Shown here: positions 3,283 to 54,633 of the stretch, piece by piece
Layout of the letters: each line of letters begins with the position of its first letter
How positions within the stretch are numbered: the first letter of the stretch is position 1
From: Candidatus Poribacteria bacterium
GTDB lineage: Bacteria > Poribacteria > WGA-4E > JAJDTR01
Assembly (NCBI GenBank): GCA_965204085.1
Contig: CBDBEE010000002.1
Coordinates: 840,913-904,912 of the forward strand
Direction of reading: 5' to 3'
DNA: 64,000 bases
Notes under the pieces: generated by a model
Database searches by the model: none
What the model saw: only the letters and a program-made list of their open reading frames with translations
What the model was told of the DNA's origin: nothing
Position numbers and translations under genes: made by a program

Positions 3283-3844
3283 ATTCTGATCTCGCCTCCA
3301 ATTTTACGGTCTTCATTACATCGCCGACTCTAAGTTTGTCGACGACATCCATGCCTTTAATCACTTGCCCAAATGTTGTGTACCGACCGTCGAGAAATGA
3401 CTGTGGTTTCAGACAGATGTAGAACTGACTCCCCGCGGAATTCGGTGCACCTGTTCGTGCCATCGCAACTGTTCCTCTGAGATGGGGACGTTGATTCGGG
3501 TTGGTATACTCATCAATGATGGTATAACCGGGGCCGCCCGTGCCATCTCCGTCTGGATCACCTCCTTGAATTATACTCAAGCTCTCTGTGTTTTCCCTAC
3601 GATGAAAAGTGAGACCATCATAAAACCGTTTTCCAACCAAGTTTGTGAAATTCTCGACCGCTACCGGAGCGGAATCGGGGAAGAATTCAATTACGAATTT
3701 TCCCTGCCGAGTTTGGACCACGGCTACCTGTTCTTCCTGCTCGTCAATTGGTTCGTCGGTGGCTTTGCGGATAGCACATCCTATCAAGGCGTAGCAGGAT
3801 ATTACTACCAACATGAAACTCGCTGTCCTAAAATGTCTTTGCAT
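3266..3844 (-). CDS. peptidyl-prolyl cis-trans isomerase, cyclophilin type (tandem paralog)
   Basis: Signal peptide with IGC lipobox. Motifs FHRRE, GTVAMARTG and QFYICL are present. It overlaps the downstream paralog by 17 nt. Confidence 0.85.
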   Translation of the reverse strand: MQRHFRTASFMLVVISCYALIGCAIRKATDEPIDEQEEQVAVVQTRQGKFVIEFFPDSAPVAVENFTNLVGKRFYDGLTFHRRENTESLSIIQGGDPDGDGTGGPGYTIIDEYTNPNQRPHLRGTVAMARTGAPNSAGSQFYICLKPQSFLDGRYTTFGQVIKGMDVVDKLRVGDVMKTVKLEARSEYVKSE

Positions 3845-7432: not shown

Positions 7433-8671
7433 ATGTCTCGAATTTTTTTCGCAATACTCGTAGTTGCTATTATTTATCCACGGTCGATAGAGTCTTCAAA
7501 GGATGGGATCAAACTATCAGGACAATTCCGAACGCGGGGAGAATTAGGCTCCACCGATTTCAATAATGATACCCCTATCGATCGGAATACTCAATTGCGA
7601 GTTCGTCTCAATGCAGCCTTTCAGCCAGCAGAGAGTATCTCAACATTTGTGCAATTTCAAGATTCTCGAATTTACGGTACCGAACCCAACACATTCACGA
7701 ATATTCGCAACGTTGACCTGCATCAAGCATATCTGCAAGTAGACAATTTTATTGCCAAAAAGCTGTCGCTCAAGATGGGACGTATGGAGATGGCGTATGC
7801 AAAAGAACGTCTAGTTGGTACCGTGGATTGGCACAATGTTGGACGCGCTTTTGATGGCACACTGCTGCGTTATGCCCTCAACCAACGGTCCACCTTAGAC
7901 GTTTTTGGAACGAAAATAGTCCAACGTGCAGATTATGAAAATCCCGCAGACACAGGCTTTTATTTTGGCGGACTATATGCTTCCCATCGACCTAAGGAGT
8001 CCTACCGTGTTGACCTCTACATTCTAGGTGAGTTGAATCGACGAGAGACCGGGAATCATGGAGCAGATCTCCAGCGAGTCACAATCGGAACGTACGACAC
8101 GGGAAATTTCAATATGATTGATTATGATATAGAAGCCGCTGTTCAATTCGGCACACGCTATAATGCGTCAACTGAAGAGCGTCAGCGCATATCTGCATTT
8201 ATGTTGACAGGTGCGATCGGTTATACTGTTGATATCGCCTTTAAGCCCTGTATCAAGCTCGGATACGATTACTTATCTGGCGGAGAACCCACGGACGAAA
8301 ATTACAGAGCCTTCGACACGCCGTTTGCCACGAATCACAGATTTTACGGATTGATGGATTACTTCGTGAGTATTCCATTTCATACAGAGGGCAGAGGTCT
8401 GCAGGATATAATGATGAAATTGGAAATTGCACCGAACAGAAAGCTATCAGTCAGAGCAGATGTACATCAATTTATGCCCGCCAAAAGGATAGTGAATGGC
8501 GACAGCTATGGACAAGAGGTGGATGTAACCGCTCTCTATCGTTATCATGAAGTTCTTCGTTTCACGCTTGGTGCCTCTTTATTCATACCAGACGAATTAA
8601 TGCAAACAAGGTTCCGGGGAAATGACAATTTAGCATTTTGGGCATACCTGATGACCACGGCGAATTTCTAG
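7433..8671 (+). CDS. putative outer-membrane beta-barrel protein (alginate-export-like)
   Basis: N-terminal signal peptide. It is rich in alternating aromatic and polar beta-strand patterns and ends in an aromatic residue. The family assignment is tentative. Confidence 0.4.
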   Translation: MSRIFFAILVVAIIYPRSIESSKDGIKLSGQFRTRGELGSTDFNNDTPIDRNTQLRVRLNAAFQPAESISTFVQFQDSRIYGTEPNTFTNIRNVDLHQAYLQVDNFIAKKLSLKMGRMEMAYAKERLVGTVDWHNVGRAFDGTLLRYALNQRSTLDVFGTKIVQRADYENPADTGFYFGGLYASHRPKESYRVDLYILGELNRRETGNHGADLQRVTIGTYDTGNFNMIDYDIEAAVQFGTRYNASTEERQRISAFMLTGAIGYTVDIAFKPCIKLGYDYLSGGEPTDENYRAFDTPFATNHRFYGLMDYFVSIPFHTEGRGLQDIMMKLEIAPNRKLSVRADVHQFMPAKRIVNGDSYGQEVDVTALYRYHEVLRFTLGASLFIPDELMQTRFRGNDNLAFWAYLMTTANF

Positions 8672-14683: not shown

Positions 14684-15010
14684 ACGCTGTTCGGGCGTGT
14701 AGATAGCCAACTTAGCGCCGATGTAAACTCAATTGGCGTTCTTTCTTGATGGTTAACATCGTAAGATTCGCGCGCAGCCCGAGAACTTGAAGGAGACTTG
14801 ATCCACAGAAAGTAGAATCTAATTTAAAAAAGTATCGTGTCGAAGTTTCTCTTGAAGGCAATGGATTTGTGCGGCAAATCGGAAAAACTGAGAGAAGCCT
14901 CTTTGCTTGGATTGCCAAATCCGTACAGATTGTGGAAAACTCGCACATGCCTAAGATGCGCTAATCGAGACGGAAACTAGCCGGCTGACCAAGGAGGGTA
15001 ACGCGTATCT

Positions 15011-15104
15011 ATACCGTGCGCTGTCAGAAATTGCGCTTTTCAAGATTTAAGGCTTGCTTCGCCGATTTTAGAGGCAGCACCAAGCGAACGAATATTGAAT
15101 GGGG
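15011..15104 (+). repeat. conserved 94-nt noncoding element, copy 1
   Basis: About 90% identical to 29586-29679. Both copies are in noncoding contexts. Confidence 0.6.
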
Positions 15105-15274
15105 AAACGTGCGTAGTTTCCACCTGTCGCCCCTCTGGGGCTTTGCTGTAGGTCGAATCAATGTTTCTATACACCTTCCGCCCCTCTGGGGCTACCAAGA
15201 TTTAAATGGGTCGCGACCTGGAGATCGCTCCTACAAAATAAGCACTTCTCAGCAGCGTGGAGTATAAACCTATA

Positions 15275-15688
15275 TTACTTTGCCAAGTTAGCGCAAACTA
15301 GCTCTCTATCATTCCGTACGAAAACATGCTTGGCTGCAAACGCCGGGTGTGTCCAACATACACCCCCACGTTGGTTCAGTTGGTCACGAGTAGGCTCAAT
15401 TAGTTTTGCCCGACTGATGATGTTCAACCCGTCCGGCGACAGACTCGTGATAAGTAACTCTCCACGTTCGTTGAACATCCAAACTTTATCCGAGTTTTTT
15501 ACGAAGTGAATCGTGCTCCAACGCGCCTTCGGAACTGCTGACAAATCCTCCCAGATACGCTCGCCGGTGTGAGAATCCAAACAACGCAATTCGCCATAAC
15601 TGTCTACCCCGTAGATGTAATCATCCAAGATAATTGGGGTTGAAATGATAGGTTGGGGGCTTATATACTTTAGTACCATAATCCCCAT
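15275..15688 (-). pseudogene. PQQ-like beta-propeller repeat protein, C-terminal fragment of a gene split by IS insertion
   Basis: It is continuous in frame with the 18607-19560 ORF once the 15656-18642 element and one copy of the target-site duplication are removed. That junction reads ...DGIQP|IISTPIILDD... Confidence 0.8.
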
Positions 15689-15931
15689 TGTTGCAGGATT
15701 TCAGGCAATTGAAAATTACTGCTTGCCCTTATCCCGCTTTTTTCGCTTAATCCCGAATAACGCACGGGCTACGTTCTCCGGCGTATCCGGGATGGATTCT
15801 GCGCTCCGTTTAGAACGCTCTGGAGGGGACTTCGTGTCCCGTTTTTTCTTCTTACTCATTATTCAGGATTGCTTTGCTTAGTCAGTATTCCTTCTCTATT
15901 GAACAGGGACAAAAAAAGTCAACAAAAAAAC

Positions 15932-16495
15932 TTACTCTGACGATCCACCTCTTGAGAACATTTGTTCCTTCCCATCCGACGTTGTTAATAGAATATGTCC
16001 CCCTTCGGTTTCAGAATGTATTCCCAGTATTGCCGCACCTCCCTTTTTTGATCGTGCCATGAAACTATATTTCCCATCTGAGGCAATAATACCTGACATG
16101 CTGTCTCCTTCCCCATTTGTCAGTGCTAATGACCCGCCAGTTTCACTATTAACTCCCAATGCAGCTACGCCCATTGACGCTTTTATAGCAGTTATTAGAT
16201 AAACTTCATTGGGTAAGTAAAATCCTACTGAACTATCGTTAGAATCAATTACATACATTCCGAAATCCGCATTACCTGGGTTCCCTTTTAAGAGTGGGAT
16301 ATGTTTCATCGCATCTCCCACTGAACCCAGAAGAATCATATTCCCACTGTTGTCATCAACTAGGATTCTTTTGCACTTTATAGTATCATACTCAACATTC
16401 CCTGGTATTTTTACGGCATTGATAGGAGTTAGAAACACGCCAACATAAGCCAGAATACCAAATACCACCGTGCACCTACGAACACTGCCTTTCAT
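15932..16495 (-). CDS. hypothetical secreted protein (passenger gene of the IS element)
   Basis: 187 aa with a signal peptide and Gly/Ser-rich repeated beta-like segments. No known motif. Confidence 0.5.
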   Translation of the reverse strand: MKGSVRRCTVVFGILAYVGVFLTPINAVKIPGNVEYDTIKCKRILVDDNSGNMILLGSVGDAMKHIPLLKGNPGNADFGMYVIDSNDSSVGFYLPNEVYLITAIKASMGVAALGVNSETGGSLALTNGEGDSMSGIIASDGKYSFMARSKKGGAAILGIHSETEGGHILLTTSDGKEQMFSRGGSSE

Positions 16496-16740
16496 TGTAA
16501 ATCCTCCTTGATAGGTTGAAGTGAGTTAAAACCACTGCTAAACCATTACGATCAAAATGATCTAACATCTTCAACCAAATGTCAAGGGGAATTTACAACT
16601 AGATCGATTTTTCTTGACTTATAGAGATTTCACGATATACTAATGAGGTAACGTTGTCACAAGGACAACGTTACCCTGCGGTTGTTACCAGCAACCGCTT
16701 CCTACTGTTCTCTCAATCAAATTGAGGAAAGGCTATAGTC

Positions 16741-17205
16741 ATGAAAAAGACAACAGCAGAAATTCTTTTAGAACGATCGAAATATATAATTTCAGCAGAC
16801 CTTCCAAGTTTGTCATACCAATCAAAATCAGTTACAATTGATTATGCGGCAAACGCCCTTAACCAATCTGCATGTTATTCTGGAAAACAATACCGGGAGG
16901 AGAACATTGACTTCGATCAATTGCATCACAACTCCAAGAAATTGTTTGCCCAAATTATATCCTCACAAATACAACTTGTACCATCACAAATACAACGATT
17001 ACACAATGAACTGACGCACATCAAAAACTCCCTAGATTTTTCCCAAAAGTTCAGACAACACCTTGATTATACCTTGAAAGTTCGCAAAACGTTACGCATA
17101 CATAAGCGTGATATTTTGATGTATCGGAATACGTTATCCCAAATTGCAAATGAGGCGTTACTGAAAGCCAAAGGCCTAAACCAGGCTGTTGTAAGGGGGA
17201 AGTAA
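16741..17205 (+). CDS. hypothetical protein (passenger gene of the IS element)
   Basis: 154 aa, probably alpha-helical. Its 5' region has a TTGACT-16-TATACT promoter and a perfect 12-bp hairpin at 16652-16680. Confidence 0.4.
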   Translation: MKKTTAEILLERSKYIISADLPSLSYQSKSVTIDYAANALNQSACYSGKQYREENIDFDQLHHNSKKLFAQIISSQIQLVPSQIQRLHNELTHIKNSLDFSQKFRQHLDYTLKVRKTLRIHKRDILMYRNTLSQIANEALLKAKGLNQAVVRGK

Positions 17206-17215
17206 ATTCAGTTCC

Positions 17216-18181
17216 TTAAACCGCCGGAGGATTATTCTCCGGCGGCTTTGCTGTTAGTTGTTCGTACTTCAACTGTTTCCCGACAGTGTTCTTGGCAACA
17301 TCAGCCATTTGTTTACCGGTATCCTCACGCCTAACGTTATGGCGCCCTTCAAACTCATTGACGTAACGGTGTAGGTGTTTCTTACTCATTTTGTGATACG
17401 TGCCGGTAAAGCCACGTTTCATCAATGACCAGAAACTTTCCATCCCATTGGTATGTGCTTGCTCCCGCACATATTCGCCAATGGAGTGTTTAACCGAGAG
17501 ATGCTTGCGTTGAAGCCCTTTATACGCCTTAGCTTCATCAGTATAAACCGTTGCATCTTCTCCCGTCTTATCTTCTACAAACCCCTGAAGTGTTTTACTG
17601 TCCGTGCTTTCTACCACTTCAGCAGTCACCTTTTTGGTTTCTCTGTTCTTCGCGCCGACAACGGCAACCTTCCCTACAGTACCACGACCGGCGTGTAACT
17701 TCTTACTCGCGTGCTTGTTCTTCTCTTTACCGCCAATATAGGTTTCGTCAACCTCAACTTCGCCGCCAAATGCGTTGTTAGTCGATTCCCACGCCTCCCG
17801 AATCCGGTGTGCCATGTACCAAGCGGATTTCTGGGTGATTCCCAAGTCACGGTGCAGTTTCATTGACGAAACCCCTTTGATTCCAGTGGTCATCAGGTAA
17901 ATGGCAATAGCCCATTTCTGATAGCCAATGTTGCTCCCGTGCATCACGGAGTTCGTTTTCACCGAAAACCGTTTCTTGCAGTCATTACACCTGTGAGGCA
18001 TTGTGGGGTGCTTAGTATGCTCTTTAACGTTCTCACTTTCGCAGTAAGCACAACGGATTCCGTCCTCCCACCTACACGTCTCAAACCACTGTTCCGCCGT
18101 CACGTCATCAGGGAACATTTGAAAAAGTTCCACCAATGTAATACCCTTCCTGTAATGCTGTCCTGGGGCATTCTTAGCCAT
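17216..18181 (-). CDS. IS1595-family transposase (N-terminal zinc ribbon plus DDE domain)
   Basis: Zinc-ribbon motif CAYCES...CNDCKKRF, followed by the ISXO2-like DDE transposase region (YKGL...HSIGEYV...TNGMESFWS). Confidence 0.85.
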   Translation of the reverse strand: MAKNAPGQHYRKGITLVELFQMFPDDVTAEQWFETCRWEDGIRCAYCESENVKEHTKHPTMPHRCNDCKKRFSVKTNSVMHGSNIGYQKWAIAIYLMTTGIKGVSSMKLHRDLGITQKSAWYMAHRIREAWESTNNAFGGEVEVDETYIGGKEKNKHASKKLHAGRGTVGKVAVVGAKNRETKKVTAEVVESTDSKTLQGFVEDKTGEDATVYTDEAKAYKGLQRKHLSVKHSIGEYVREQAHTNGMESFWSLMKRGFTGTYHKMSKKHLHRYVNEFEGRHNVRREDTGKQMADVAKNTVGKQLKYEQLTAKPPENNPPAV

Positions 18182-18606
18182 TTTTCTTTCTCCTTTCTAT
18201 GACATATATTATACTATTTTCGCCCAAAAGTCAACGAAAATCCAGTCATAGCAAGGGTTCAAGGGGTTTCGACGAATTTCGTAATTACCAGAATTAGTAT
18301 TGGCGAAATTAAAAAAGTTCGATATAATTTGAGCGGGGAGCAGTCCACTTACTCCCCGAAAGGAGGTATTCAACTATGAATACCTCAAAAAGTCGGTATC
18401 CCCAAACGGATACCATCCTTGAGCGAAAACGCCTTTCGCGTACCAAGTCTGTTTTAACATGGTACAACGCCCAAACGGGCGAAAAGGTGTTTTGGATGAC
18501 GGTTGAAATAACCGGATTCTTCGCTTAAACCAGTGCGGGCGTTCACCCCAAAATGGACGCCCCACTTCCCACTTTTCTCAAATTACACCGAAATCCAAAA
18601 AAACTG

Positions 18607-19560
18607 CTAAATTAAGAAAATGGTATTAAGGTATATAAGCCCCATAGGTTGAATGCCATCAGTATTCTTTTCATCGGCGCCTCGCCGCCACCATATCTCT
18701 TCAACGGCTAAACGCTCAGAGGCGACTTTGAGCATTAACGAACCCTCAAAAAAACCAGCCATGAACAGCCGGTCTTTGTAAAGCACCGGAGTCGCGACGG
18801 CGAGGATTACTCCTTTCGGCGGGAACGCGTGTACCCAGTACAACTCACCACTTTGCGGGTTTAGACCAACCACGTTATCCCCAGTCCAGCACACCAGTAC
18901 GCGTTTACCGGCTTGGTCAATCATAATGGGTGCAGCATATGAGGCGCGATCATCCAACGCTTTCCACCTTTCTTCTCCGGTGCTCCGATCAAACGCAACA
19001 ATGCAAGCGCCGGGCGACCCACCGACCTGAACTATCAGAAGGTCATTTTCTACGAGGGGAGCACTGGCAATGCCCCAGACGGGCATCTGTATGTTGTATT
19101 CGGCGTTGAGCTCCCTTTTCCAGCGCAGATCGCCGTTGGCGGCATTTAAGCAGTGTAGATGCCCCATCGTTCCGAGCGCATAGGCAAGTCCATCGTGTAC
19201 AGTAACGGAAGCTCGCGGTCCAGCCATATAACCGACATTCCTGTATTCACAATCGTAAGAAGTAGACCAAATCTTGTCGCCAGATTCCGCGTCGAAACAA
19301 TGAACCCGCTCAATCTGCTTGGGAGTTGTGACGCGATCAGTCACGAATACGCGACCGTCCACGACCGTTGGACCACTATAACCACTTGACACGGGGACAC
19401 GCCACCGAACGCTCACCTCGGGCGCATCGAATTTCTCAATGATACCGGTTTCGTTCCATACTCCGTCGCGGTTAACGCCTCGCCACTGAGGCCAATCGTC
19501 CGCAGATGTTGGCGGCGCAATGATTAAAATAACGAACAATCCGAACAGAACAATCTTCAT
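18607..19560 (-). pseudogene. PQQ-like beta-propeller repeat protein, N-terminal part with signal peptide, truncated by IS insertion
   Basis: Signal peptide and PQQ-type repeats. The reading frame runs into the IS right end. Confidence 0.8.
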
Positions 19561-21580: not shown

Positions 21581-24500
21581 TCACTTCCTTATCAGCATCT
21601 TGCGCGTCGCCGTGAACTCGTCTGCTCTCAATGTGTAAAAGTATAAACCACTGGCGACTGGCTCACCATCCTGATTCCTGCCGTCCCAATACGCCGCACG
21701 GCTGCGACTGTGATACATGCCTGCCGGTCGATGTCCAATCTCTATACGGCGAACCGTAACCCCATTCATGTCGTAGACTGTCAGCGTTACCTGTGAGGGC
21801 ACCGCCAACTGATACGGTATCCAGGTTTCAGGATTAAATGGATTCGGGTAGTTGGGGTGCAGCGCGGATTCACCGGGAATGATCAGTGAGGTTAACAGGT
21901 TTTCGAGATTCGCGATGCCCTGTCGAAAGGTGATCGAACCGTCGTCTACCAGCCGTGCCTGTGAAATCCATGTCTCTATCAAATCCCTATCGCGCTCGTT
22001 ATCCACTCGCTTGATCGAAGGCGCGGCGGCTCCTCCAATGCCCTGTGCCACAAGTGTGAGGTCGAAGATGTTGATAATCCCGTCGCCGTTGATGTCCTCC
22101 GGCGAGTTGGGGGGTAGGCGTTTCCCCAACTGCTGTGCGACGAGGATCAGATCCAGAATGTCGACGCCACCGTCACGATTCACATCTCCGGTCAGTAGGC
22201 GTTCCTCCACTGTGAGAAAGATTTCATGAGGCCCCGCCGGGATGTTTTCCCCGGTACTAGAGCCGAACTTGAAGTTACCCAACGCCAAGCGCGTCTCGCC
22301 ATGCGATTTCGCGGTGAACTGTACTTGAAGTACTGTACCGGCACCACGGACTCCGCCGCCAGAGAGTCGTGCAGATTTGAGCCCCGTGATTTTACCCACT
22401 GCGTTGTCAATCCGCCCACTCTGGAAGAAAGTTGTTCCACCGTCCGCCATCAGGAAGTCGCCTTCGCTTACGTCAATCGCTTCAAGAATGGCTGGGTCGA
22501 AGGCGATATCAAACTGCCACCCTGCCAAGTCGGCAACATTTTCTGCACGCACGTCGAAGGTAAAGGTATCGCCGAGGTGGATTGGCGTATCGGAAAATGC
22601 GTAGCCTATGCCGGTTCCCACTGCGTATTCGGTGTCTGATTCAAATCCGAAAAAGGCGTTAGCCCCGCGGTTGACATCGGTGGCAACGGCGACCAACAGC
22701 ACATTCCTCCCCTGTTGCAGCGTCACCGGAAAGAAGTCATTGTAATCCTCTCCTTCGCGACGGTCGTAGTGCCCGCGGAGGAAATCGCCGTTGAGCCAGA
22801 TCTTCAAACCAGCTAGTGCCCCCACGTACATCGTTGTGTCCTGTTCGCGCGGGGAATAGAGAGAAACCGAGCCGTAGATAACGCCGTCCGGGAGACGCTG
22901 TCCCACCATGTCCCAAATGTTGTTCCGCCCCGTCGGCGGGAGCTTATCGGAAGTCCATACCTCATCGCCGACCGAATTCCCCTCGGTTGCACCATGCGTA
23001 GCGACCGCTTCCTCTGTCACTATGCCCTGGCTCGCTGCCGCAAGGAAGTCCATGTTCAGATGTTTTCCCATCGGGAAATAGACCCAAAGCCAAGGACCTT
23101 CTATCTTGGAACCTCCTATAGGGAACCCCGGATTGTTGTGCCATTCGATTTTTGTGTTTGCACGCAACCCATCCAAGGGCGAAAAGTCGGAAATATTGTT
23201 GTTGCCCACCCCCAACCATATCAGGTTTGTTAGCCCTGCCAGTGCCGAAATATTCGATATCCGGTTTTCGGACACATTCAGGCGCTCAAGCCCGGTTAAA
23301 CTCGCAAGCGGCGATATGTCCGATATTCCGTTCGAGACGAGATATAGCCTTTTTAGCTTGGGCAGGTTCATCAAAGGCGAAAGGTCTGACAAATCCGCAC
23401 CGCAAATATCTATGCTTTCCATGTTTGTTAATCCGGCTAGTGGCGACAAATCGGAGAAGCGGTTGCCCCAAGTACCAATGCCTTTCAAGTTATGTAATCC
23501 CGCAAGCGGGGATATATCAGATACGCTGTTTCCGGTAAATCCCAATACCTCCAGATTGATCAAGCCAGCTACAGGAGAAAGGTTGGAAATCAGATTACCT
23601 AATAATTCTAACCGAATCAGATTGGTTAATCCCGCAAGTGGTGACAGGTCGGAAATCTTATTCTCTCTGACATTTAATCTATCCAGATTGATTAATCCCG
23701 CAAGTGGTGACAGATCTGAGATCGCATTACCTCCAAGCTGTAACTCTCTCAACCTGGTTAATCCCGCTATCGGAGAAAGGTCGGAAATCTGTGTGCGAAA
23801 AGCGTCCAGCCTACTGAGATTTCTCAATCCATTCAGCGGAGATAGATCGGATACAGGGTTGTTGCTAATCCTGAGTTCATACATTTCAATTAAGCCTGCT
23901 ATAGGTGAAAGGTCAGAAATCTGATTGTCCGTGACAAGCAATTCTCTCAGATTGGTAGCAAATTGCAGTCCAGTCAAATCGCGGATATCCCTGTTACTCG
24001 GCTTAATTTTACTCAATGTTTTCATCTCCTCCGCGGTAATGGGGGTATTGGCGCTTTTGCCAAGCGCTTCCGCAACGGCGGCACGCAAGTTGGAATCAGG
24101 GAAATGAACCTGCCCACCAGGCAACACATCGGGCTGTGTTATGACCGGAGGCTCTCCGACTAACTGCGGGTAGTCCAGCGCAGAAATTATATCTCGAAAA
24201 CTAGATGTCCAAGTATCTCGCTTCACACTCCCGTTTTCATTGTCTAGCGCCAGCAACCCAACGTTTTGCAGTCCGGTGTTCTCACGTATCCTTTCGAGAA
24301 AGGTTTCGGTCTCCAACCCGACCACAGCAGCAGCGTATGCCACGTCTATCGGCGCCTGAAACGCTTCATGAAAACGTGAAACCGGCTCAATACCGTCAAA
24401 CGTACCGCCCGTGGCTTCAAGCGCTACTCTGTATGTTTCCATGTCTTCACCCACACGGGCATCCATGTCTGACTGTTCCACATAGAGTCGCAGCGCCTGC

Positions 24501-25810
24501 GCTTTGTTATAGGGTGGACTGGGGTTGCTCTCAATTGCGGCACGCACCTCGTCTTCAAAGGTCTTCATGCCCTCCGTATGGCAACCGATGCAGGAGATGC
24601 CGTTGCGCACCGTGGGGTCGCTGGTAGCGGGATTGGAAACGATGTTTATCGGGGCTTCATCCAACCGGAAACCGGACGCATTGGCAAGGTAGTATCCTTG
24701 CAACCCGTTTGGCAGATTGAAGATAGCTTCTCCCCCATCGTGCGTGAAGTTAAGCGGGTGGGTAAAGATGTTTTGTGTACCCACACTCCCTGCAAAGTCG
24801 TAGCTCTTCCAATAGGCTCCATAGCGTGAGGTGTGTCGTTCCACGACACGGTTGTGGTTTGAGACACCCGAGTTGTTGAATCCCGCACGCCAGACACGGA
24901 CCCCTGGTGCGTTAACCAGATTGCCTGCAACATCAACCTCCAGCCGGGTTTCCAAGTCCCTGTCCGTCAACGGCAGCGACAGTAGTTCGTGATATAGTGG
25001 CGGAGTAGATGCGGTTGCAATAAACCAGTCGATATGCACTGACGGAACATCGGTCTTCATCTGTGTTTGCAAGCGCCCCAGTTGTGACCGGAGTGTAGTG
25101 TCGGTTGGAGCGTCAAACGCGATGTGGTAGGGATAGGCTTCCTCTATCTTTGTCCAGCCGTCATTCCGATCCCACTCGTAGTGACGGAGGTCGATGTAGA
25201 AGATAGTGACTTGCGGGTCGATGGGTTGTGGGTTGGTGATTCCGCTTCCCCATGAGAGGCTATTGACCAGTTTGTTGAGCGCTTTGCGGTATTCAGCAAG
25301 TATCTCCGCTGTTTCGCCAGCATTATAGAGGTGGGTGAGAGTGAAGTAACGGGCAAAAGCGCGGTCAAACGACGAGAGCGAGCTGAGGTGTGTCTCAATG
25401 CTAGTGAGCACTTCGCTGGGGGGAATGAAACGATGATCTGGCGCACTAGTTGCCGCCCAATCGGGTGCGCCAGCTAGAATCCAGCGTCGAACCGTCTCAA
25501 TGGATTGGGCGGGCAATTGAGGCAGTCCAAACGGCATCTGCGCGCCGTTTTCGGTGGGACCGAGGAGGCGTTTGTACAATTCGGATGCATCTGGATTTCC
25601 AAGTACAACAGTGCCACCATCAATGAGTTCGCTGTGCTCCATGAGGAGCGTTTCTCGAAAGGCGCCGTCGGGGCCATGGCAGTTCAGGCAACTCGCTTCA
25701 AAGATGGCGTAGGTGTCTTGGGCTAACTGCGATTGGGCAGATAGATTTTCAGAACCTGCGCTGAGAGACAGTAGGCATATCAAAGCAAAAATGAAATGAC
25801 GTTTATACAT
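21581..25810 (-). CDS. giant secreted multidomain protein: N-terminal cytochrome-c-like CxxCH region, about 14 leucine-rich repeats, dockerin-like repeats, and a T9SS/FlgD-type C-terminal sorting domain
   Basis: Signal peptide. CLNCHG motif. 22-residue LRR units (LxxLxLxxNxISDLSPLAGL). Repeats DVNRDGGVDILDL and DINGDGIINIFDL. C-terminus ...GLYFYTLRADEF...K. Confidence 0.8.
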   Translation of the reverse strand: MYKRHFIFALICLLSLSAGSENLSAQSQLAQDTYAIFEASCLNCHGPDGAFRETLLMEHSELIDGGTVVLGNPDASELYKRLLGPTENGAQMPFGLPQLPAQSIETVRRWILAGAPDWAATSAPDHRFIPPSEVLTSIETHLSSLSSFDRAFARYFTLTHLYNAGETAEILAEYRKALNKLVNSLSWGSGITNPQPIDPQVTIFYIDLRHYEWDRNDGWTKIEEAYPYHIAFDAPTDTTLRSQLGRLQTQMKTDVPSVHIDWFIATASTPPLYHELLSLPLTDRDLETRLEVDVAGNLVNAPGVRVWRAGFNNSGVSNHNRVVERHTSRYGAYWKSYDFAGSVGTQNIFTHPLNFTHDGGEAIFNLPNGLQGYYLANASGFRLDEAPINIVSNPATSDPTVRNGISCIGCHTEGMKTFEDEVRAAIESNPSPPYNKAQALRLYVEQSDMDARVGEDMETYRVALEATGGTFDGIEPVSRFHEAFQAPIDVAYAAAVVGLETETFLERIRENTGLQNVGLLALDNENGSVKRDTWTSSFRDIISALDYPQLVGEPPVITQPDVLPGGQVHFPDSNLRAAVAEALGKSANTPITAEEMKTLSKIKPSNRDIRDLTGLQFATNLRELLVTDNQISDLSPIAGLIEMYELRISNNPVSDLSPLNGLRNLSRLDAFRTQISDLSPIAGLTRLRELQLGGNAISDLSPLAGLINLDRLNVRENKISDLSPLAGLTNLIRLELLGNLISNLSPVAGLINLEVLGFTGNSVSDISPLAGLHNLKGIGTWGNRFSDLSPLAGLTNMESIDICGADLSDLSPLMNLPKLKRLYLVSNGISDISPLASLTGLERLNVSENRISNISALAGLTNLIWLGVGNNNISDFSPLDGLRANTKIEWHNNPGFPIGGSKIEGPWLWVYFPMGKHLNMDFLAAASQGIVTEEAVATHGATEGNSVGDEVWTSDKLPPTGRNNIWDMVGQRLPDGVIYGSVSLYSPREQDTTMYVGALAGLKIWLNGDFLRGHYDRREGEDYNDFFPVTLQQGRNVLLVAVATDVNRGANAFFGFESDTEYAVGTGIGYAFSDTPIHLGDTFTFDVRAENVADLAGWQFDIAFDPAILEAIDVSEGDFLMADGGTTFFQSGRIDNAVGKITGLKSARLSGGGVRGAGTVLQVQFTAKSHGETRLALGNFKFGSSTGENIPAGPHEIFLTVEERLLTGDVNRDGGVDILDLILVAQQLGKRLPPNSPEDINGDGIINIFDLTLVAQGIGGAAAPSIKRVDNERDRDLIETWISQARLVDDGSITFRQGIANLENLLTSLIIPGESALHPNYPNPFNPETWIPYQLAVPSQVTLTVYDMNGVTVRRIEIGHRPAGMYHSRSRAAYWDGRNQDGEPVASGLYFYTLRADEFTATRKMLIRK

Positions 25811-26252
25811 AGAAAATGTCCCCTTTATGTATGGATAACCAATTTTGGTAATTGTTTAGATCAGTCCAGAACTTACGCGTCAACAGGAAATCGCGACCTG
25901 GAGATCGCTCCTACATTACGCTCAGGGATCTCTATGGGAATTCTATCGCATTCGCTATCCGCTCATTTGATCGCTCACTATCCGTTCGCTTGATGGTGTA
26001 GGAACGGGGATTAAACTGCAGCACGACGAACCAACATTCCCAAAACAGATTGATATACTCAGCACCGGTTAATTTTGGGCAATTGTGCACCGAAGGTTTG
26101 TAGGAGCGATCTCCGAATCGCGACTGTCGGGAATCGGTGGGAACTCCTCCTACCGCCTGCAAAACTCATGCTCCATTTCTTGACTCTTAAAAACGCAACT
26201 TCCAACAGCGTAGAGTATAGACTAAACAATTACCAATCGCGCATAGCCCAAC

Positions 26253-27076: not shown

Positions 27077-28483
27077 CTATCCAGACGACATCGGAAAACC
27101 GGCGGGGCGTGTATAAGGCAGATACTTTGTCTGTCCCCACGACATTCCATCTTGGCTCAAGCCATCCCGCCGCGGATCTACGAACCGGGAAAACCAGTCA
27201 TCCAACATTCCGTCCAGTTCCTTGATTCGGTCGCTTTGCGCCTCATCTTCTGCCAGATTCTGCCGCTCATCGGGATCGGACACAAGGTGGTACAGCTCGT
27301 GGGGGCCGTGACTGTGTCGGTAGGTGTATTTCCACTCTTGAGTGCGAACCATCCGCACGGGGCCATATTCGTCGTAGACCACTACCTGTTCGGCGCCATC
27401 AGATGGTCTGCCTTCCAATGCTGGTAGAAAGCTGCTGCCAGGTAGATTTCGATCTTCCGGTACGGGCAGGTCGAGGTATTCCAAGAGTGTCGGCATGAAG
27501 TCGTAGGAGCTAATCATCGAGTCGTTGACATCCCCTAGAGGGATGCGACCGGGGTGGCTGAAGATAGCGGGAACTTTAATGGAATTCTCGTACATGTTGC
27601 GCGGCATCGTCGCGTTCCCTTTTCCCCAAAATCCGTGATGTCCACACGAAAAGCCGTTATCGCTTAGGAACACAACAAGCGTATTATCGCGTAAACCGAG
27701 TTCCTCTAGTCTGTCGAGGATACGACCGATGTTTTGGTCCATAGCAGTCACTGCGGCAAAGTAACCCTTCAGCGCCTCTCGGTTGCCGAGCGCATCGTCC
27801 GTAAAGACATTACTGCCTACCCCAGCCCATGGATGACGCGGCTCTTGCGGACAGGTCTCGAACAGGCAATCGTCATAAGAGTCGACGATAGATTGAGGGT
27901 GTTCATTCACCCACGGATCGTGGGGGGCAGTGTAATGAACACTCAAGTAGAACGGATGACCGTGATCGGCATATCTGTCCAGTATCTCCAGTCCCTCGTC
28001 GGTAATAGCATCCGTTAGGTACCTCGGCTCGTTTAGGAGTTGACCGTTTTTCACCATGGGCGCATCGTGGTAGTGCCCGCCACCCAACTGATGAGCATAC
28101 CAATCGGTGAAACCGTGTTGCGGTATCTGGCTGTCACCCAAATGCCACTTGCCGGATAGACCACAAGTCCAGCCGTGTCGCGCCATGATGTCCGTGTACC
28201 CTACCTCACCCTCTAAATAACGGATGGCGTCAGGACCGACATTTCCATCCCGAATCCAGTCGTGCACGCCGTGTTGAGACGGAATACGCCCTGTCAACAG
28301 GGTCGCGCGACTCGCCGAGCAGACAGGAGATGCAACGAAAAAATTGCTGAACCTGATCCCCGAATTGGCTAAGCGGTCGAGATTGGGCGTGCGTATTTCA
28401 GGATTGCCGCAGCAACCCGCCGCCCATGATCCCTGGTCGTCGCTCAGAATAAAGAGAACGTTCGTTTTGTCTGCGTTACTCAA
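27077..28483 (-). CDS. arylsulfatase (formylglycine-dependent sulfatase family)
   Basis: Sulfatase signature SPVCSASRATLLTGR (C-x-A-S-R). 468 aa. Confidence 0.9.
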   Translation of the reverse strand: MSNADKTNVLFILSDDQGSWAAGCCGNPEIRTPNLDRLANSGIRFSNFFVASPVCSASRATLLTGRIPSQHGVHDWIRDGNVGPDAIRYLEGEVGYTDIMARHGWTCGLSGKWHLGDSQIPQHGFTDWYAHQLGGGHYHDAPMVKNGQLLNEPRYLTDAITDEGLEILDRYADHGHPFYLSVHYTAPHDPWVNEHPQSIVDSYDDCLFETCPQEPRHPWAGVGSNVFTDDALGNREALKGYFAAVTAMDQNIGRILDRLEELGLRDNTLVVFLSDNGFSCGHHGFWGKGNATMPRNMYENSIKVPAIFSHPGRIPLGDVNDSMISSYDFMPTLLEYLDLPVPEDRNLPGSSFLPALEGRPSDGAEQVVVYDEYGPVRMVRTQEWKYTYRHSHGPHELYHLVSDPDERQNLAEDEAQSDRIKELDGMLDDWFSRFVDPRRDGLSQDGMSWGQTKYLPYTRPAGFPMSSG

Positions 28484-29585
28484 ATTGCCACCTCGTGGTT
28501 AACAGCTAGCGGTTAGTGAATCCTTCATAAGAATCACGTAATTGTTTAGTCCATCGGTCTGGATTTGCCAATCCAGACCGAGCGGGGCAGGGAACGCGCC
28601 GAGTAGGGAAGTACAATGCTAATTCCGGCTAATCGGGGCTTACATGCCCAGACCGGACGTGCAACGAACTGTAATACTACGAACCAAACGATGCACTAAA
28701 CAGTTACAGAATCATGTTGCCGTTAAAAGCGAAATCGGAAAATCGACTGGTTTCTTAGGGCTTGTTTGAAAGTTCTCGGTACGACCCAAAAACGTCATTA
28801 GGTCATCTTGAGAAATTTCATACTTTTCATACCAAATCGAGGTTTTCAGTAGACGTGGAATAAGGGCTTGACACCTTGCTATGACTGGATTTTAAGTGGT
28901 TTTGTCACTATAGCTATTTAAGCAGAGGTATGAAATCCTAGATGTTATCCAAGACAATTTCAGTTGACACATTGGCGCTATTCTCATTAGATAAGTTGGC
29001 TCTCCAAAGAGGTGCCAAAGAGGTGCTAGAATACTGAACATTTGTATTAAGACTAAAGTAACGTATTTGCTAAACGGGGAAGGGTTTCGTACACTTGTCA
29101 TGGTAGCTTAAAGCTACAATCAATCAACAACGTCTTTACCGTTTAAAATTAACGCAAGTTGACACCTAATCGTTAATAGTTGGATTTGCATTTTTCTGGG
29201 TGTTGTATCGCAGTCCCGCTCGGCTTGGATAGACATATCCAAGCCGTACCTGCATGTGTGCAGTGGATTTGTCAATCCACTGCGAGCAAGTTGAGTAGAT
29301 TTTGCTTACATTGCCCCGATTTGCGACGTATCCCATTAGACGGTCGGGCTAGAAGCCTGGGGGATTTCTATCGCGCTCCTTATTCAGTCAGTTGATCACT
29401 CATTGTTCACTCGCTTGATCCCCGCTGGGGCTTAGGCACGGGGCTTCGGAGTTTCTACACACCTTCAAGATCTCCCCTCGGTCGCGAGTTCTTATCACGA
29501 GTAGAACTTGCTTCTACAAAAGATACGCAGCAAACAGTGTTTCGACAGATGGAACTGTCTAGTCCCAAATGTAAAATCCCTAGCT

Positions 29586-29679
29586 ATACCGTACGCTGTT
29601 AGAAATTGCGCTTTTCAAGATTTAAGGTTTGCTTCGCCGATTGTAGAAACTGTGCCAAGGGAACGAATATTGAATGGGG
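29586..29679 (+). repeat. conserved 94-nt noncoding element, copy 2
   Basis: About 90% identical to 15011-15104. Confidence 0.6.
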
Positions 29680-29716
29680 TAATGTCGGCAGTGAGATCTC
29701 TATCGATCAACCGATA

Positions 29717-29800
29717 ACACTCGACATTGCGCTCCGCTGGAGCGCGGAGATTGGGCGCATCACGATTCTATTGACATTGCACTCCTCCGGAGTGCAAGAG
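29717..29800 (+). repeat. hairpin-pair module (gcgctccgctggagcgc ... ttgacat ... gcactcctccggagtgc)
   Basis: It is homologous to the two units at 63434-63806, and the hairpin stems show compensatory substitutions. Confidence 0.55.
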
Positions 29801-30379
29801 CTTGATCTCCTTATTCAGTCACTTGATTTATTCGCTGGTTTGATGGGATTTCTATCGCCTTGGGATCTCTATCGCAGTCACTGTTCGTTCCATTGATCCT
29901 ACAAAATAAGCAATTCTCAGCAGCGTGGAGTATAATGGGCTATAGAAAACAAAATTGGCTCTTCAGAGTTAAGTGTGGAAAATGAAATTATCTTGGGGCA
30001 TGTTGACATTTATGTAAGGCGTATCCATAATTCGCCGATAAGTCCCTATCGTAGGGGCGAGGTTTCCTCGCCCAACGGGTTGGGGAACCCAACCCCTACG
30101 GAAATTGCCTCAATGTAGGGGCAACCACAAGGGTTGCCCAACATACTGCCTCAAGTGAATCAATATTGGCTTAATTTTCAAATGTCAACAGAACCTAGGA
30201 CTTACGCAGTCGAGTGCTCAAATGCACCTTCGTGTAGCAAGTTCCATTCCCACACTTGACCCTGAAGAACCACAAAATTTACATTACGTGTCAAGGACGG
30301 CGTAAAACGAAATCTCCTGCCATTCCAATCCTTCTCATCCCAGTCGCCTTAGACGAAAAACTTTAATGCTAAAACGTGC

Positions 30380-34527: not shown

Positions 34528-35702
34528 TTGTGAACGTTGCCAAAATTTGGATTATACACCGATCTGTGCACCTTGTAAAGCGATTTCAGCAGCAATCCAT
34601 CGCACCCGGTCCCCGATAACCGACAGCACACGACTATCGATTTTCGTTCGCGGTCTCCCCTTTGCGTACCAGGCTCATAGTGCTAGAATGCGTTGTTCAG
34701 CCTCTCTGTCGGAGCGACCTCCTGGTCGCGACAAAACCGAGTTTTTTCCTCGCCCGCGCAGTTCCACCTTCGGTCATCAAATCGAAGATGCAATTTCCAA
34801 GTCTTGAATATTGAATTGCTAGGGGAAACGCATCTATACCTTGCGTTGGGTAATATTGCGCTTGTTTTCGCAGCACTAACGTCTCGCGATTCGGAGATCG
34901 GAGGGATCTCAATCAGGATCTACTATGGGATAGCTATCAGGATTGGCTATGGGATCCCTATCGTCCTCGTTATTCACTCACTTGATCGCTCATTATCCAT
35001 TCGCTTGAGGGATCTCTATGGGATTTCTATCGCCCTCGTTATTCACTCGGTTGATCCTTCCTTATCCAGTCAGTTGATCCTGCCGTTTATGGGGTGTTTT
35101 GGTGATTGTCTGAATCACGGATTTTCACTGATTAAACGGATTACACGGATTACGGGATCTCTATCGCGCTCCTTATCCAGTCGCTTGATCCTTCTGTTGA
35201 GTAAAATTGAGCTTGTTTCCTCGACAATTATGGTTTTTAATACGACTTACGCGGCGCCAGCAGGTCGCGATTGGGAGATGGGATCTCTATGGTCGTATAG
35301 AGGCGATCACAATCTAACAGATTGTGGTACAGAAATCTATGATCCCACTTGATCGTGGCTGCTACTCTACCAGACGCTCGAAAACACGCAATTTTCAGCA
35401 GCGTGAAGTATAATTATAGAGGATGTCTCATGGCGGTAGAATGTACGATTAATGTTGGGTTTCACTCGAATTTTGGCACGTTCAGGCAAAGCGGGAACTC
35501 GAAAACTCCTCTAAGATTGGCGATTATTAACGAATTCCGTTCAACCCAACCTACGACTGCGATGCGATTTCCAAGTCTTGATGATTGAATTGCCTTGACG
35601 CACTTCATCACTCCTTGATAAAATGCGAACTTAACGCGCTGCTCTGGAGCAACTTGCCCATTGGGGGCGCAGTAAAATCAACGGCGAGAAAAGAGAAAAA
35701 CT
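34528..35702. repeat. 1.2-kb repeat-rich noncoding island
   Basis: It contains arrays of 12-nt GGATCTCTATCG-like units and 22-nt ...TTATCCAGTCGCTTGATCC-like units, the gatgcRatttccaagtcttga repeat (two copies), and the ttcagcagcgtgaagtataa motif. Confidence 0.5.
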
Positions 35703-50330: not shown

Positions 50331-50490
50331 GGTGTATTCACATTTACCGGGAAATCCACCTATACGTACACCACACCCGACAGATTGGGAACCCAACCCC
50401 TACGATTTGTAATTCGTCCCTAGTCATAGGAGTGTATTTCCGTAGGGGCGGGGTTGCCCCACCCGCAATTTCGACTTAAAGGAGAATATA

Positions 50491-52470: not shown

Positions 52471-53067
52471 TTACTCCGCCATTTTCCGAATCTCAGGACT
52501 GGAAGACATCTGCCGTATCACATCGTCTCCAAGATTTCGGATGGCATCCTTCACAGAGTCGGCAAACGCCTTCCCCTTTGCGCTAAAAAGAACACCTTTA
52601 GCCGAAGCGTGTCCTTTGCCTAACGCCGTAACAGCGGCAATTTCTGTCATTTCGGGACTGTAACAGGTCAGTTTCGCAGTTAGAGAGTTGCTCGATTCGC
52701 TACTGTCTCCGATATAGACGAAGGTTCCTACCTCGTACCTAACCTGTGCAGTGACGACAAGGTTTAGCTGGCTATCGGCTATAGATTCTAATGTCGGGTA
52801 CGAATCTAACGCCTCAACGGAAGCGAAAACGCGCCGAGTCGCTCTGGTAAGGGTCGAAACAAGGTCTTTACCTATTCGCAAATCATACTTCTTTTCGTCA
52901 TCTTTGAGGATTTCGTATCTGGGCTCAAAGGAGGTTATTAGAGACAGGGTGTCTTCAGTGAAAAAAAGGCCGACCCTCAAATCCATGCGATCCGAGTTGT
53001 CGGAACACCCGATGACACCAATCGCAACAGTTATGAGTAAAATGCTGCGGCAATAATCAAACATCAT
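52471..53067 (-). CDS. lipoprotein, paralog 1 of a tandem triplicated family
   Basis: Lipobox IGCSDNSD. Conserved N-terminus MMFDYCRSILLI and C-terminus NLGDDVIRQMSSSPEIRKMAE. Confidence 0.7.
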   Translation of the reverse strand: MMFDYCRSILLITVAIGVIGCSDNSDRMDLRVGLFFTEDTLSLITSFEPRYEILKDDEKKYDLRIGKDLVSTLTRATRRVFASVEALDSYPTLESIADSQLNLVVTAQVRYEVGTFVYIGDSSESSNSLTAKLTCYSPEMTEIAAVTALGKGHASAKGVLFSAKGKAFADSVKDAIRNLGDDVIRQMSSSPEIRKMAE

Positions 53068-53238
53068 TCTTCATCGTCTTTCGAGTGTGAAAATTGAGAT
53101 TGGATACCGGAAAAATTCCCGATTCCACTATCTGAGAAAGACCAGCTTAAGAGTCTATTTGAAAATCCATTTCCAGTAGAACTATGAAACCGAGCCTCTC
53201 TATTGCCCTCATTTGACGACCTCCTTTTCTGGCTTGAA

Positions 53239-53835
53239 CTATGGAGTAATTGTCGCGTTAACTTTCTCCGCCATGTTCCGAATCTCAGGATTGGAAGACA
53301 TTTGCAGTGCCACGTCGTCTCCAAGATTGCGGATGGCAGACTTTGCTGATTTGACACGAGCTCTCCTCTCCGAGCTAAACACAATGCCCTGAGCCGAAGC
53401 GTTTCCTCGTCCAGACGCCTTAATCACTGCGATTTCTACCATTTCGGGATTGTAACAAATAAGTTCAACGCTTATGGTGCGGCTTGCTTCACTCTGATTC
53501 AGCAAACCATTTCCTTGATAGCTGCCGCTGCCACCCATAGACCCAAATTGCACAACGACAGCAAGTTTTAGCTTTCCATTGGCTATTGACTCTTGTGTCG
53601 GATCTGATTCTAACTCTTCAACAGACCTGAAGATGCTCTGAGTCGATCTAATAAGCGTTGATACAACGTCTTCGCCCAACTGTAAATCACCTTCACTATC
53701 CGCAAGCATCAGATTTCGCGTGTTTTCAGCGAAAAAAATGCCGACCTTCAAATCCATCCGATCCGAATTGTCGGCACACCCAACGACAACAAACGTAGTA
53801 GCAATGAGCAATACGCCACGGCAAAAATCAAACAC
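53239..53835 (-). CDS. lipoprotein, paralog 2 of a tandem triplicated family
   Basis: Lipobox VGCADNSD. Termini conserved and central about 100 aa divergent. Confidence 0.7.
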   Translation of the reverse strand: MFDFCRGVLLIATTFVVVGCADNSDRMDLKVGIFFAENTRNLMLADSEGDLQLGEDVVSTLIRSTQSIFRSVEELESDPTQESIANGKLKLAVVVQFGSMGGSGSYQGNGLLNQSEASRTISVELICYNPEMVEIAVIKASGRGNASAQGIVFSSERRARVKSAKSAIRNLGDDVALQMSSNPEIRNMAEKVNATITP

Positions 53836-54009
53836 AATTCTCCATCTCCTTTCAAGTTTGAAAATTGAGTTTGAGTATCGGAAAAATTCCTGATTCCACT
53901 ATCTGAGAAAGACCAGCTTAAGAACCTATTTGAAAATCCATTTCCAGTAGAACTATGAAGCCCAGCCGCTCTATTACCTTCATTTGACGACCTCTTTTTC
54001 TTGCTTGAA

Positions 54010-54633
54010 CTACGGAGTAATTGTCGCGTTAACTTTCTCAGCCATGTTCCGAATCTCAGGATTGGAAGACATTTGTAGTGCCACGTCGTCTCCAAGATTG
54101 CGAATAGCAACCTTCACTGCACCGACAAAAGCTCTCCTTCTTGAGTCAAACAGAATGCCTTTCGCCGTAGCATTCCCTTCCCCTGACACAGTAACCGCGG
54201 CGACTTCTATCATTTCAAGATTGAAACAAGTCAGTTCAGCGGTCAGGGCCCTGCTTGCTTCGCTACTATTCTGGATACTGTTTCCCTCATAGCCGAGGGA
54301 GCCTCCAGCCGGTCTAACCTGTACAACAACGACAACATTTAGCCGTCTGTCGGCTATAGACTCCTTTGTCGGATAAGAGTCTAACACCTCGACAAAAGCG
54401 AAAACGCGTCGAGCCGCTTTGGAAAACGTCGATACAATGTCTTTATCTACCCGCAAGTCGTCTTTTGCATCAAAGACGGGATAGTGATGGGGTTCAAAGG
54501 ACATTGTTAGACGCTGCGTGTCTTCCGTGAAAAAAATGCCGACCTTCAAATCCATGCGATCCGAATTGTCGGCACACCCGATGAGGACAGTCGCAACGAT
54601 AATGAGCAGATTACCACGGCAAAAATCAAACAC
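54010..54633 (-). CDS. lipoprotein, paralog 3 of a tandem triplicated family
   Basis: Lipobox IGCADNSD. Termini conserved and central region divergent. Confidence 0.7.
   Translation of the reverse strand: MFDFCRGNLLIIVATVLIGCADNSDRMDLKVGIFFTEDTQRLTMSFEPHHYPVFDAKDDLRVDKDIVSTFSKAARRVFAFVEVLDSYPTKESIADRRLNVVVVVQVRPAGGSLGYEGNSIQNSSEASRALTAELTCFNLEMIEVAAVTVSGEGNATAKGILFDSRRRAFVGAVKVAIRNLGDDVALQMSSNPEIRNMAEKVNATITP

Follow-up and report, generated by a model that had tools for sequence, protein, structure and literature searches.

A probable nest of miniature mobile elements beside a sulfatase gene in a Candidatus Poribacteria genome

A stretch of 64,000 nucleotides of Candidatus Poribacteria DNA (hereafter the window) harbors at 28484-30379 an intergenic island of 1896 bp, bounded by two minus-strand genes that encode a sulfatase and a GHL10 glycosyl hydrolase. 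Comparison with related sequences indicates that this island is very probably a nest of miniature mobile elements, lying beside the native promoter region of the sulfatase gene at a rearrangement junction. More than half of its length consists of identifiable miniature mobile elements, some of which are matched by empty sites in sister strains, and the repeat graveyard proposed in an earlier note on this DNA is thereby borne out. From the GHL10 stop to the sulfatase start the island comprises about 100 bp of GHL10 3' flank, MITE-2, MITE-3, an older MITE-3-like remnant, a hairpin doublet related to MITE-1, about 300 bp of sulfatase upstream region, MITE-1, and finally the sulfatase start. The three miniature inverted-repeat transposable elements (MITEs), MITE-1, MITE-2, and MITE-3, measure 170, 315, and 350 bp, respectively; all three have terminal inverted repeats and empty sites in sister strains, and none contains an open reading frame (ORF) with an above-threshold Pfam match. 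The kinds of element involved (an ISL3-type MITE, other MITEs, and hairpins of the repetitive extragenic palindromic, or REP, type) are already known, while the families are undescribed for Poribacteria; a full-text literature search combining Poribacteria with "miniature inverted-repeat" found no paper. The features of the region, in window coordinates, are as follows.

27077-28483, minus: sulfatase gene (PF00884, E = 1.8e-50)
28484-28537, minus: proximal leader of the sulfatase gene with ribosome-binding site GAGGTGG; the gene starts with TTG at 28483
28538-28707, minus: MITE-1, 170 bp; inverted repeat, empty site in strain L003
28716-29020, minus: upstream region belonging to the sulfatase gene itself, with conservation in L140 and L141
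29021-29350, no strand: lineage-specific spacer that contains a pair of perfect hairpins (29222-29245 and 29260-29283), common to L003 only (90%)
29351-29583, plus: probable older, truncated MITE-3-like remnant, shared with L003, L004, L007, and L008 at 92-95%
29585-29934, plus: MITE-3, 350-bp composite with imperfect inverted repeats TATACCGTACGCTGTTAGAAATTGC ... GCAATTCTCAGCAGCGTGGAGTATA
29585-29679: MITE-3 part, 94-nt arm
29693-29706: MITE-3 part, A-box
29717-29797: MITE-3 part, hairpin-pair module
29800-29898: MITE-3 part, GATC units
29897-29934: MITE-3 part, right end with the CAGCAGCGTGGAGTATAA motif
29957-30271, minus: MITE-2, 315-bp ISL3-type MITE; inverted repeat, target duplication, empty sites
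30003-30031, plus: promoter-like TTGACA-17-CATAAT, 11/12 consensus match, inside MITE-2
30051-30073, plus: putative REP-type hairpin, GTAG head and G+C-rich palindrome, inside MITE-2
30077-30099, minus: putative REP-type hairpin, GTAG head and G+C-rich palindrome, inverted doublet with 30051-30073
30115-30139, plus: putative REP-type hairpin, GTAG head and G+C-rich palindrome, inside MITE-2
30280-30379, minus: native 3' flank of GHL10, 92-97% identical in L003, L004, L007, and L008
30380-31546, minus: GHL10 glycosyl hydrolase gene

The earlier note had described the island as free of ORFs and packed with at least five dispersed repeat families, and both statements hold. The longest ORF overlapping the island is 96 aa, and a Pfam scan of ten island ORFs (41-96 aa) returned nothing above threshold; a single Myb-like match fell short of it (E = 0.03, 14.9 bits where the cut-off is 22.9). 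The island contains at least seven repeat families, and every repeat that the note lists is present at its stated place. The 94-nt conserved element at 29584-29679 matches 15009-15104 at 90%, the hairpin-pair module at 29717-29794 matches 63434-63511 at 95%, and the recurrence of the REP-like element near 50383 is confirmed by a 100% match of 30083-30100 to 50387-50404. The island hairpins are real in the sense that they fold far more stably than shuffled sequence, with z values of -6.5 (30045-30145), -7.5 (29205-29290), and -3.3 (29715-29800), and A/B-box motifs occur 30 times in the 64-kb window vs 0-3 times in shuffled sequence. The GATC-containing repeat blocks are present (29361-29420 and 29800-29898), but with periods of 11 and 23 nt within a 37-nt unit and not of 12 and 22 nt as had been read. 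The GATC tetramer itself is not enriched, with 8 sites in the island, and is under-represented window-wide; an enrichment of the Dam/SeqA type is ruled out by this count.

Three miniature elements and their empty sites

Comparison loci were drawn from close strains (L003, L004, L007, and L008; GHL10 95-96% aa identity), from more distant relatives (L001, L002, L005, and L142-L145; GHL10 81-88% aa identity), and from the surroundings of sulfatase orthologues (L140 and L141; sulfatase 90-91% identity). The GHL10 homologues carry the name Candidatus Poribacteria. L003 has the same gene order as the window (PhyH - GHL10 - island - sulfatase - SDR) with genes at about 96% nucleotide identity, and its island, at 1435 bp vs 1896 bp in the window, differs by at least four insertions or deletions. 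It lacks MITE-2, MITE-3, and MITE-1 at the window site, and has a 340-bp insert of its own that includes a MITE-1 copy. L004, L007, and L008 likewise have empty MITE-2 and MITE-3 sites. The island is thus variable among related genomes.

MITE-2 is bounded by terminal repeats of 34 nt with 79% identity (GGTTCTTCAGGGTCAAGTGTGGGAATGGAAC / GGCTCTTCAGAGTTAAGTGTGGAAAATGAAAT) and flanked by a perfect 8-bp target duplication, ACAAAATT (29949-29956 and 30272-30279; also written AATTTTGT); alignment with L003, L004, L007, and L008 identifies the empty site gtaAATTTTGTtttctatagcc in all four. Elements of the ISL3 family of insertion sequences (IS) have ends that start GGCTCTTCG and 8-nt direct repeats, and have given rise to a derived 187-nt MITE in Microcystis (PMC11448079). 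MITE-2 resembles ISL3 elements and their MITEs in its ends, which start GGCTCTTCAG / GGTTCTTCAG (GGCTCTT), in its 8-bp A+T-rich duplication, and in the absence of coding capacity, and differs from the Microcystis MITE in its cargo, which comprises a promoter-like site together with three REP-type hairpins. The 22-nt pattern of the MITE-2 end recurs in at least 120 metagenome stretches. At L041 (13000-14327) two inverted copies of the ends lie 1.33 kb apart around a transposase gene with matches to PF01610 (DDE_Tnp_ISL3, E = 1.4e-47) as well as to PF13542 and PF14690 (HTH_Tnp_ISL3, Zn_ribbon_ISL3). Among the metagenome stretches fetched, end pairs are spaced about 1.3 kb apart in nine cases and 156-271 bp apart in six, and 13 loci encode an ISL3 transposase. 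Similarity of MITE-2 to full-length ISL3 elements amounts to 91-94% over the 35-nt end and to 76% over up to 72 nt. With ends, duplication, and full-length transposase-coding relatives all in agreement, MITE-2 is best classified as ISL3-derived, and would have been moved in trans by an ISL3 DDE transposase, through a cut-and-paste or copy-out reaction with an 8-bp staggered cut of the target.

MITE-1 is inserted 54 bp before the sulfatase start codon. Its terminal inverted repeats are 19 bp long (GTAACTGTTTAGTGCATCG / GTAATTGTTTAGTCCATCG, 89% identity) and enclose an inner hairpin core, TGGATTGGCAAATCCA; the target duplication in the window, AGAATCAC (28530-28537) / AGAATCAT (28708-28715), is equal at 7/8 positions. 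In L003 the same site is uninterrupted, and a 94% identical copy is found elsewhere in the island of that strain (3385-3556), again with a 7/8 duplication. A 96% identical copy in L015 has a perfect 8-bp duplication (GATTTTTT), the copies in the window, L003, and L015 being 94-96% identical, and a subfamily-1b copy in L011 combines the same ends and another interior with a perfect 8-bp duplication of its own (GAAATTTT). MITE-1 end sequences occur at 13 places in the sampled loci and also bracket the repeat-rich spacer at 25848-26233. Members of the IS66 family have terminal inverted repeats starting GTAAGCG and generate 8-bp duplications (PMC11946415). MITE-1 shares the initial GTAA and the 8-bp duplications, but continues with CTGTTTAG or TTGTTTAG instead of GCG and has no full-length partner in the loci or in viral contigs, where scans for the MITE-1 end and for the 37-nt unit gave no match; the likeness stops after four bases, and kinship with IS66 is only a lead. 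MITE-1 may have been moved by a transposase that, like that of MITE-2, makes 8-bp duplications. L140 has, independently, a MITE-like insert of about 180 bp (7790-7975) that occupies a near-identical position upstream of the sulfatase start and contains a hairpin core, TGGATTGCCAAATCCA, as in MITE-1. The hairpin doublet at 29222-29283 is linked by an inverted repeat to the inside of MITE-1; given the homology of its hairpins with the inner MITE-1 hairpin, the spacer that surrounds it (29021-29350) is probably a decayed MITE-1-like element. The doublet hairpin family is also present in L001, L002, L005, L012, L035, L105, and L140.

MITE-3 unites several of the repeats previously listed one by one. 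The 94-nt element is present, though not as an entity separate from the CAGCAGCGTGGAGTATAA motif: since the reverse complement of its start is that motif, the two are the inverted ends of one element. These inverted repeats are imperfect, about 25-35 nt long, and kept in 12 copies. The full copies, 12 in number and 208-427 bp in length, are all intergenic, come from the window and from Poribacteria genomes, differ by the presence or absence of the 37-nt unit, and have no consistent orientation relative to genes, and the idea of an outward promoter was rejected on this ground. The window contains three copies or derivatives, one of which (15010-15266) has no counterpart in the orthologous spacer of L140 and L141. 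When genomes were scanned with the conserved MITE-3 core, 11 stretches were retrieved, all from Poribacteria metagenome-assembled genomes and at least eight of them in one 6.15-Mb chromosome (OZ244829.1); within the genome collection scanned, MITE-3 is specific to Poribacteria. In place of the island copy, L003 and L004 have 16 nt (aattcaactaagaatc) and L007 and L008 have 15 nt (aattagctaagaatt). MITE-3 is regarded as a MITE-like element. Adjacent to it, 29351-29583 resembles the inner modules of MITE-3 and is probably an older remnant; it comprises two 37-nt-type units (29361-29420), a hairpin (CCCCGCTGGGGC), a linker ending TACACACCTTCAAGATCTC, and a degenerate right end.

Two further observations concern this family. 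A 427-bp MITE-3 copy in L003 (1325-1753) fills the spacer between PhyH and GHL10, which is 69 bp in the window, and because this copy ends 2 bp before the GHL10 ATG, the native ribosome-binding region of GHL10 in L003 has been replaced by an element. The hairpin-pair module also forms part of a longer repeat, about 187 nt in length, in which a 91-nt hairpin pair is joined to a 100-nt spacer with its own 12-bp stem; there are two tandem copies at the window end (63424-63800) and several in L002 (15300-16050), two of the latter with a 37-nt unit inside the first hairpin.

Several points weigh against the reading of the island as a nest of mobile elements. Across about 280 kb of Poribacteria DNA there is a single copy of MITE-2 and not one locus with an ISL3 transposase, so that the standing of MITE-2 as a repeated family in Poribacteria is unproven; the metagenome contigs with MITE-2 ends, moreover, are devoid of the Poribacteria repeat families. 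The compared loci contain no autonomous partner of either MITE-1 or MITE-3. For MITE-3 the only candidate target duplication is a TA at each end that is inseparable from the element, three comparisons of filled and empty sites were not clean, and the empty site differs from the filled allele by 15-16 nt. These points leave the transposition of MITE-3 undemonstrated; it could also have been placed by recombination between copies. Last, the conservation of a MITE-3-type composite elsewhere in the window (M3b, described below) hints that some elements may be constrained and not junk.

The joint between the GHL10 and sulfatase blocks

The order ASPIC - PhyH - GHL10 is conserved, while the gene that comes after GHL10 is not, as the following three arrangements illustrate.

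Lactamase_B_3 after GHL10: six loci (L001, L002, L005, and L143-L145)
tRNA-Thr_ED/CopD after GHL10: L142
sulfatase after GHL10: the window and L003 only

In L140 and L141 the genes of the sulfatase block (sulfatase - SDR - epimerase - Ldh_2 - PQQ - RRM - DAHP synthase) come in the same order as here, save for extra insertions in the window. Because the gene next to GHL10 varies and the sulfatase block is collinear elsewhere, the island can be placed at the joint between the two blocks, and the variable neighbor of GHL10, together with the difference in island length from L003, agrees with the earlier suggestion of a recombination hotspot. The elements may have piled up here as the site joins GHL10 and sulfatase blocks that are not neighbors in most relatives, where insertions would probably be tolerated.

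The presence of Lactamase_B_3 in this position in relatives might suggest that the island is a decayed protein-coding gene, and repeats such as these are able to mislead assemblers, which would instead make it an artefact (a collapsed repeat or a chimeric join). This pair of explanations is extremely improbable. Searches with tblastn using all neighboring genes of L001 and L002 found no trace in the island, nor did its ORFs have an above-threshold Pfam match, and a pseudogene is rejected on both grounds. A 183-aa ORF that runs through similar repeats in L002 retains 68% aa identity at 88.7% nucleotide identity, that is, 0.887 cubed, as for non-coding DNA. Four independent assemblies from other samples (L003, L004, L007, and L008) reproduce the shared parts of the island and the exact empty sites, which argues against an artefact.

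Not all of the island is made up of repeats. About 300 bp (28725-29019), overlooked previously, are 69-74% identical to the sequence upstream of the sulfatase gene in L140 and L141, and because this conservation persists despite different upstream neighbors there, the region is taken to be the sulfatase gene's own. It contains inverted TTTCATACC / GGTATGAAA repeats, invariant blocks that include CCAGTCATAGCAAGG and GTCTACTGAAAACC, and, according to a promoter scan, a weak promoter-like site at 28934->28907. The proximal leader, GTTAACCAAGAGGTGGnAATTTGAG, is also kept in L003, L140, and L141. The segment 28716-29020 is likely to be the control region of the sulfatase gene. Small differences between strains are seen here as well: the window has an 11-nt tandem duplication at 29004-29026 (CCAAAGAGGTG, 2.1 copies) that L003 lacks, and the upstream region of L003 in turn has one extra GTATGAAAA copy and one extra TTTCATACC copy. 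A 27-nt match between 28867-28893 and 18237-18263, upstream of an IS1595 transposase, extends no further, and a link of the sulfatase upstream region to IS1595 was discarded.

REP-type hairpins, 37-nt units, and their possible roles

REPs consist of a GTAG or GTGG head followed by a short imperfect palindrome (Table 1, PMC2817692), and are associated with REP-associated tyrosine transposases, or RAYTs (PMC2817692, PMC3333891). The island hairpins resemble REPs, bacterial interspersed mosaic elements (BIMEs), and REP doublets forming hairpins (REPINs) in combining a GTAG head with a G+C-rich imperfect palindrome of 20-25 nt in an extragenic position, and, like REPs and BIMEs, occur singly or as inverted doublets and in mosaic arrays with linkers; the window hairpin TGTAGGAGCGATCTCCGAATCGCGAC is comparable to the Pseudomonas putida REP TGTAGGAGCGGCCTTGcGTCGCGAA. 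They differ from known REPs in that they belong to another phylum, that some lie inside DDE-type MITEs, and that many have a 37-nt unit in the loop. By the format of head, palindrome, and extragenic position, the hairpins at 30051-30139 (fold energy -31.9 kcal/mol, z = -6.5) are assigned to the REP type, and relatives of them are found at 50384-50467, in L001 (6519-6617), in L009, and in L005. The multi-hairpin REP-like element of the earlier note therefore has the REP format but does not stand alone here, being cargo of the ISL3-type MITE-2. Much the same applies to the candidate promoter: the TTGACA-17-CATAAT site exists and matches the consensus at 11/12 positions, yet promoter-like sites in the island number three vs 3.1 expected by chance, and because this site is carried inside MITE-2 it is not evidence for a local transcription unit. 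The island has no terminator-like site.

These features bear directly on a different proposal, namely that one or several structured non-coding RNAs are expressed from the island under the control of TTGACA-17-CATAAT or of a GAGTATAAT motif. Very stable hairpins, the 11/12 promoter match, and a 94-nt arm highly conserved across genomes would all be expected of such a locus, which is nonetheless very unlikely. A scan against Rfam gave no match at the gathering score, or even at E <= 1, and a tRNA scan was likewise empty. Across 14 copies of the 94-nt arm, compensatory pairs amount to 0/31 on one strand and 2/20 on the other, and the covariation term is close to 0. The promoter and its hairpins lie inside MITE-2 and are absent in sister strains, as other elements are present or absent between strains, and promoter-like sites are no more frequent than chance predicts. 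Because of the lack of an Rfam match and of covariation in the 94-nt arm, the non-coding RNA reading is unsupported.

The GATC blocks of the island belong to a 37-nt unit, RGGATYTCTATCGC-N-TATTCAYTCGYTTGATC, that begins GGGATYYCTATCGC and ends TATTCAYTCGYTTGATC. The unit lies directly 5' of CCCCTCTGGGGC, CCTCTGGAG, or CCTAC, and in 74 clusters it is very often found between the arms of a REP-type hairpin, as in GGCGGGGcaag[unit]CCCGCCtacgg. On folding it shows no structure (z = +0.55), and it is frequently expanded in tandem, with a sub-period of 11 nt. Nearly all copies are on one strand: counted as boxes, the bias is 27 vs 3 in the window (21999-63879), and across the whole L002 locus, which is oppositely oriented, it is 1 vs 24; counted by intergenic region of the window, it is 6 vs 1. 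Same-strand copies within tens of kb would fit a replication-coupled mechanism acting on single-stranded DNA (HUH or RAYT-like). No claim is drawn from unit orientation relative to local GC skew, roughly 41 vs 16 in one direction, since gene orientation, the non-independence of clusters, and the C-richness of the unit are all confounders. IS1397, ISKpn1, and IS621 are known to target REP hairpins (PMC1525189). The 37-nt units resemble such elements in occupying one defined site in REP-type hairpins (the loop, or 5' of CC(CC)TCTGG / CCTAC) and in the existence of filled and empty versions among otherwise homologous copies. Unlike them, the units are only about 37 nt long, unstructured, non-coding, and often tandem. 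To our knowledge no REP-targeting element is as small as 37 nt, and no enzyme is known for the unit.

One unit-bearing composite of the MITE-3 type has an unusual pattern of conservation. M3b (34835-35412, 590 bp), a neighbor of the ASPIC gene, has 86-89% identity with L002 6394-6903 and about 93% in its unique inner part, while the third codon positions of the flanking genes are only 61-71% identical between the window and L002, and the sequence just outside its ends is not alignable between the two. Five other related genomes lack M3b. The pattern could be due to constraint or, alternatively, to later acquisition. Speculatively, the 37-nt unit may be a new ultra-small module placed into the loop or the 5' side of REP hairpins and, in addition, some unit-bearing composites such as M3b may be under purifying selection, a combined proposal that has a low probability of being right.

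A related possibility, compatible with a mobile origin, is that the island repeats are domesticated, BIME-like functional modules (for nucleoid binding, transcription termination or insulation, or stabilization of mRNA) that would make the island a regulatory or architectural region kept by selection. The excess conservation of M3b over its flanking third positions would fit this proposal, as would REP-type hairpins in the format of known REPs, the predominance of one strand among 37-nt units (6 vs 1 intergenic regions in the window and 24 vs 1 in L002), and the presence of MITEs at the same spot upstream of the sulfatase start in two lineages. However, MITE-1, MITE-2, and MITE-3 are absent from strains that are about 96% identical and are thus not needed there, M3b is missing from the five genomes mentioned above, and MITE-3 copies follow no orientation rule relative to genes. 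Domestication of the island repeats is accordingly considered unlikely, and the nest of mobile elements remains the preferred reading.

Further insertions in the window and significance of the elements

Other parts of the window have also been interrupted. An IS1595-family element of about 3 kb (15659-18640; ends GCTTATATACYTTARTACCAT) splits a PQQ beta-propeller gene into an N-terminal part (18607-19560) and a C-terminal fragment (15275-15688), while L140 and L141 have an intact 429-aa gene. The element encodes a transposase (17216-18181, PF12762) and two to three extra ORFs with no Pfam match, and its GC content falls to 0.39. A gene for a 1409-aa protein with LRR, cohesin, dockerin, and FlgD-Ig domains (21581-25810) lies between the SDR and epimerase genes with repeat-rich spacers on both sides; because SDR and epimerase are adjacent in L140 and L141, it is an insertion into the sulfatase block. 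At 52471-54633 there are three tandem paralogous ORFs of 198-207 aa, with a DNA period of 771-804 nt and 65-85% identity, and the one of them that was scanned had no Pfam match. Window-wide, GGCC is strongly avoided (64 observed vs 225 expected, a ratio of 0.28), and the observed/expected ratios of AGCT (0.59) and GATC (0.62) are reduced as well, a pattern suggestive of pressure from restriction-modification.

The elements described here explain why intergenic spacers vary between Poribacteria strains and why spurious ORFs are called in such spacers, the 183-aa call in L002 being an example, and they could be used as strain markers. If the 37-nt unit or M3b proved to be functional, this would bear on REP-like systems outside the Proteobacteria. 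For the Poribacteria, which are sponge symbionts, this is the first sequence-level account found of MITE and REP-type families, and through it a 1.9-kb gap between two genes becomes a readable history, with three dated insertions, one older remnant, and, very probably, a native promoter region at a rearrangement junction.

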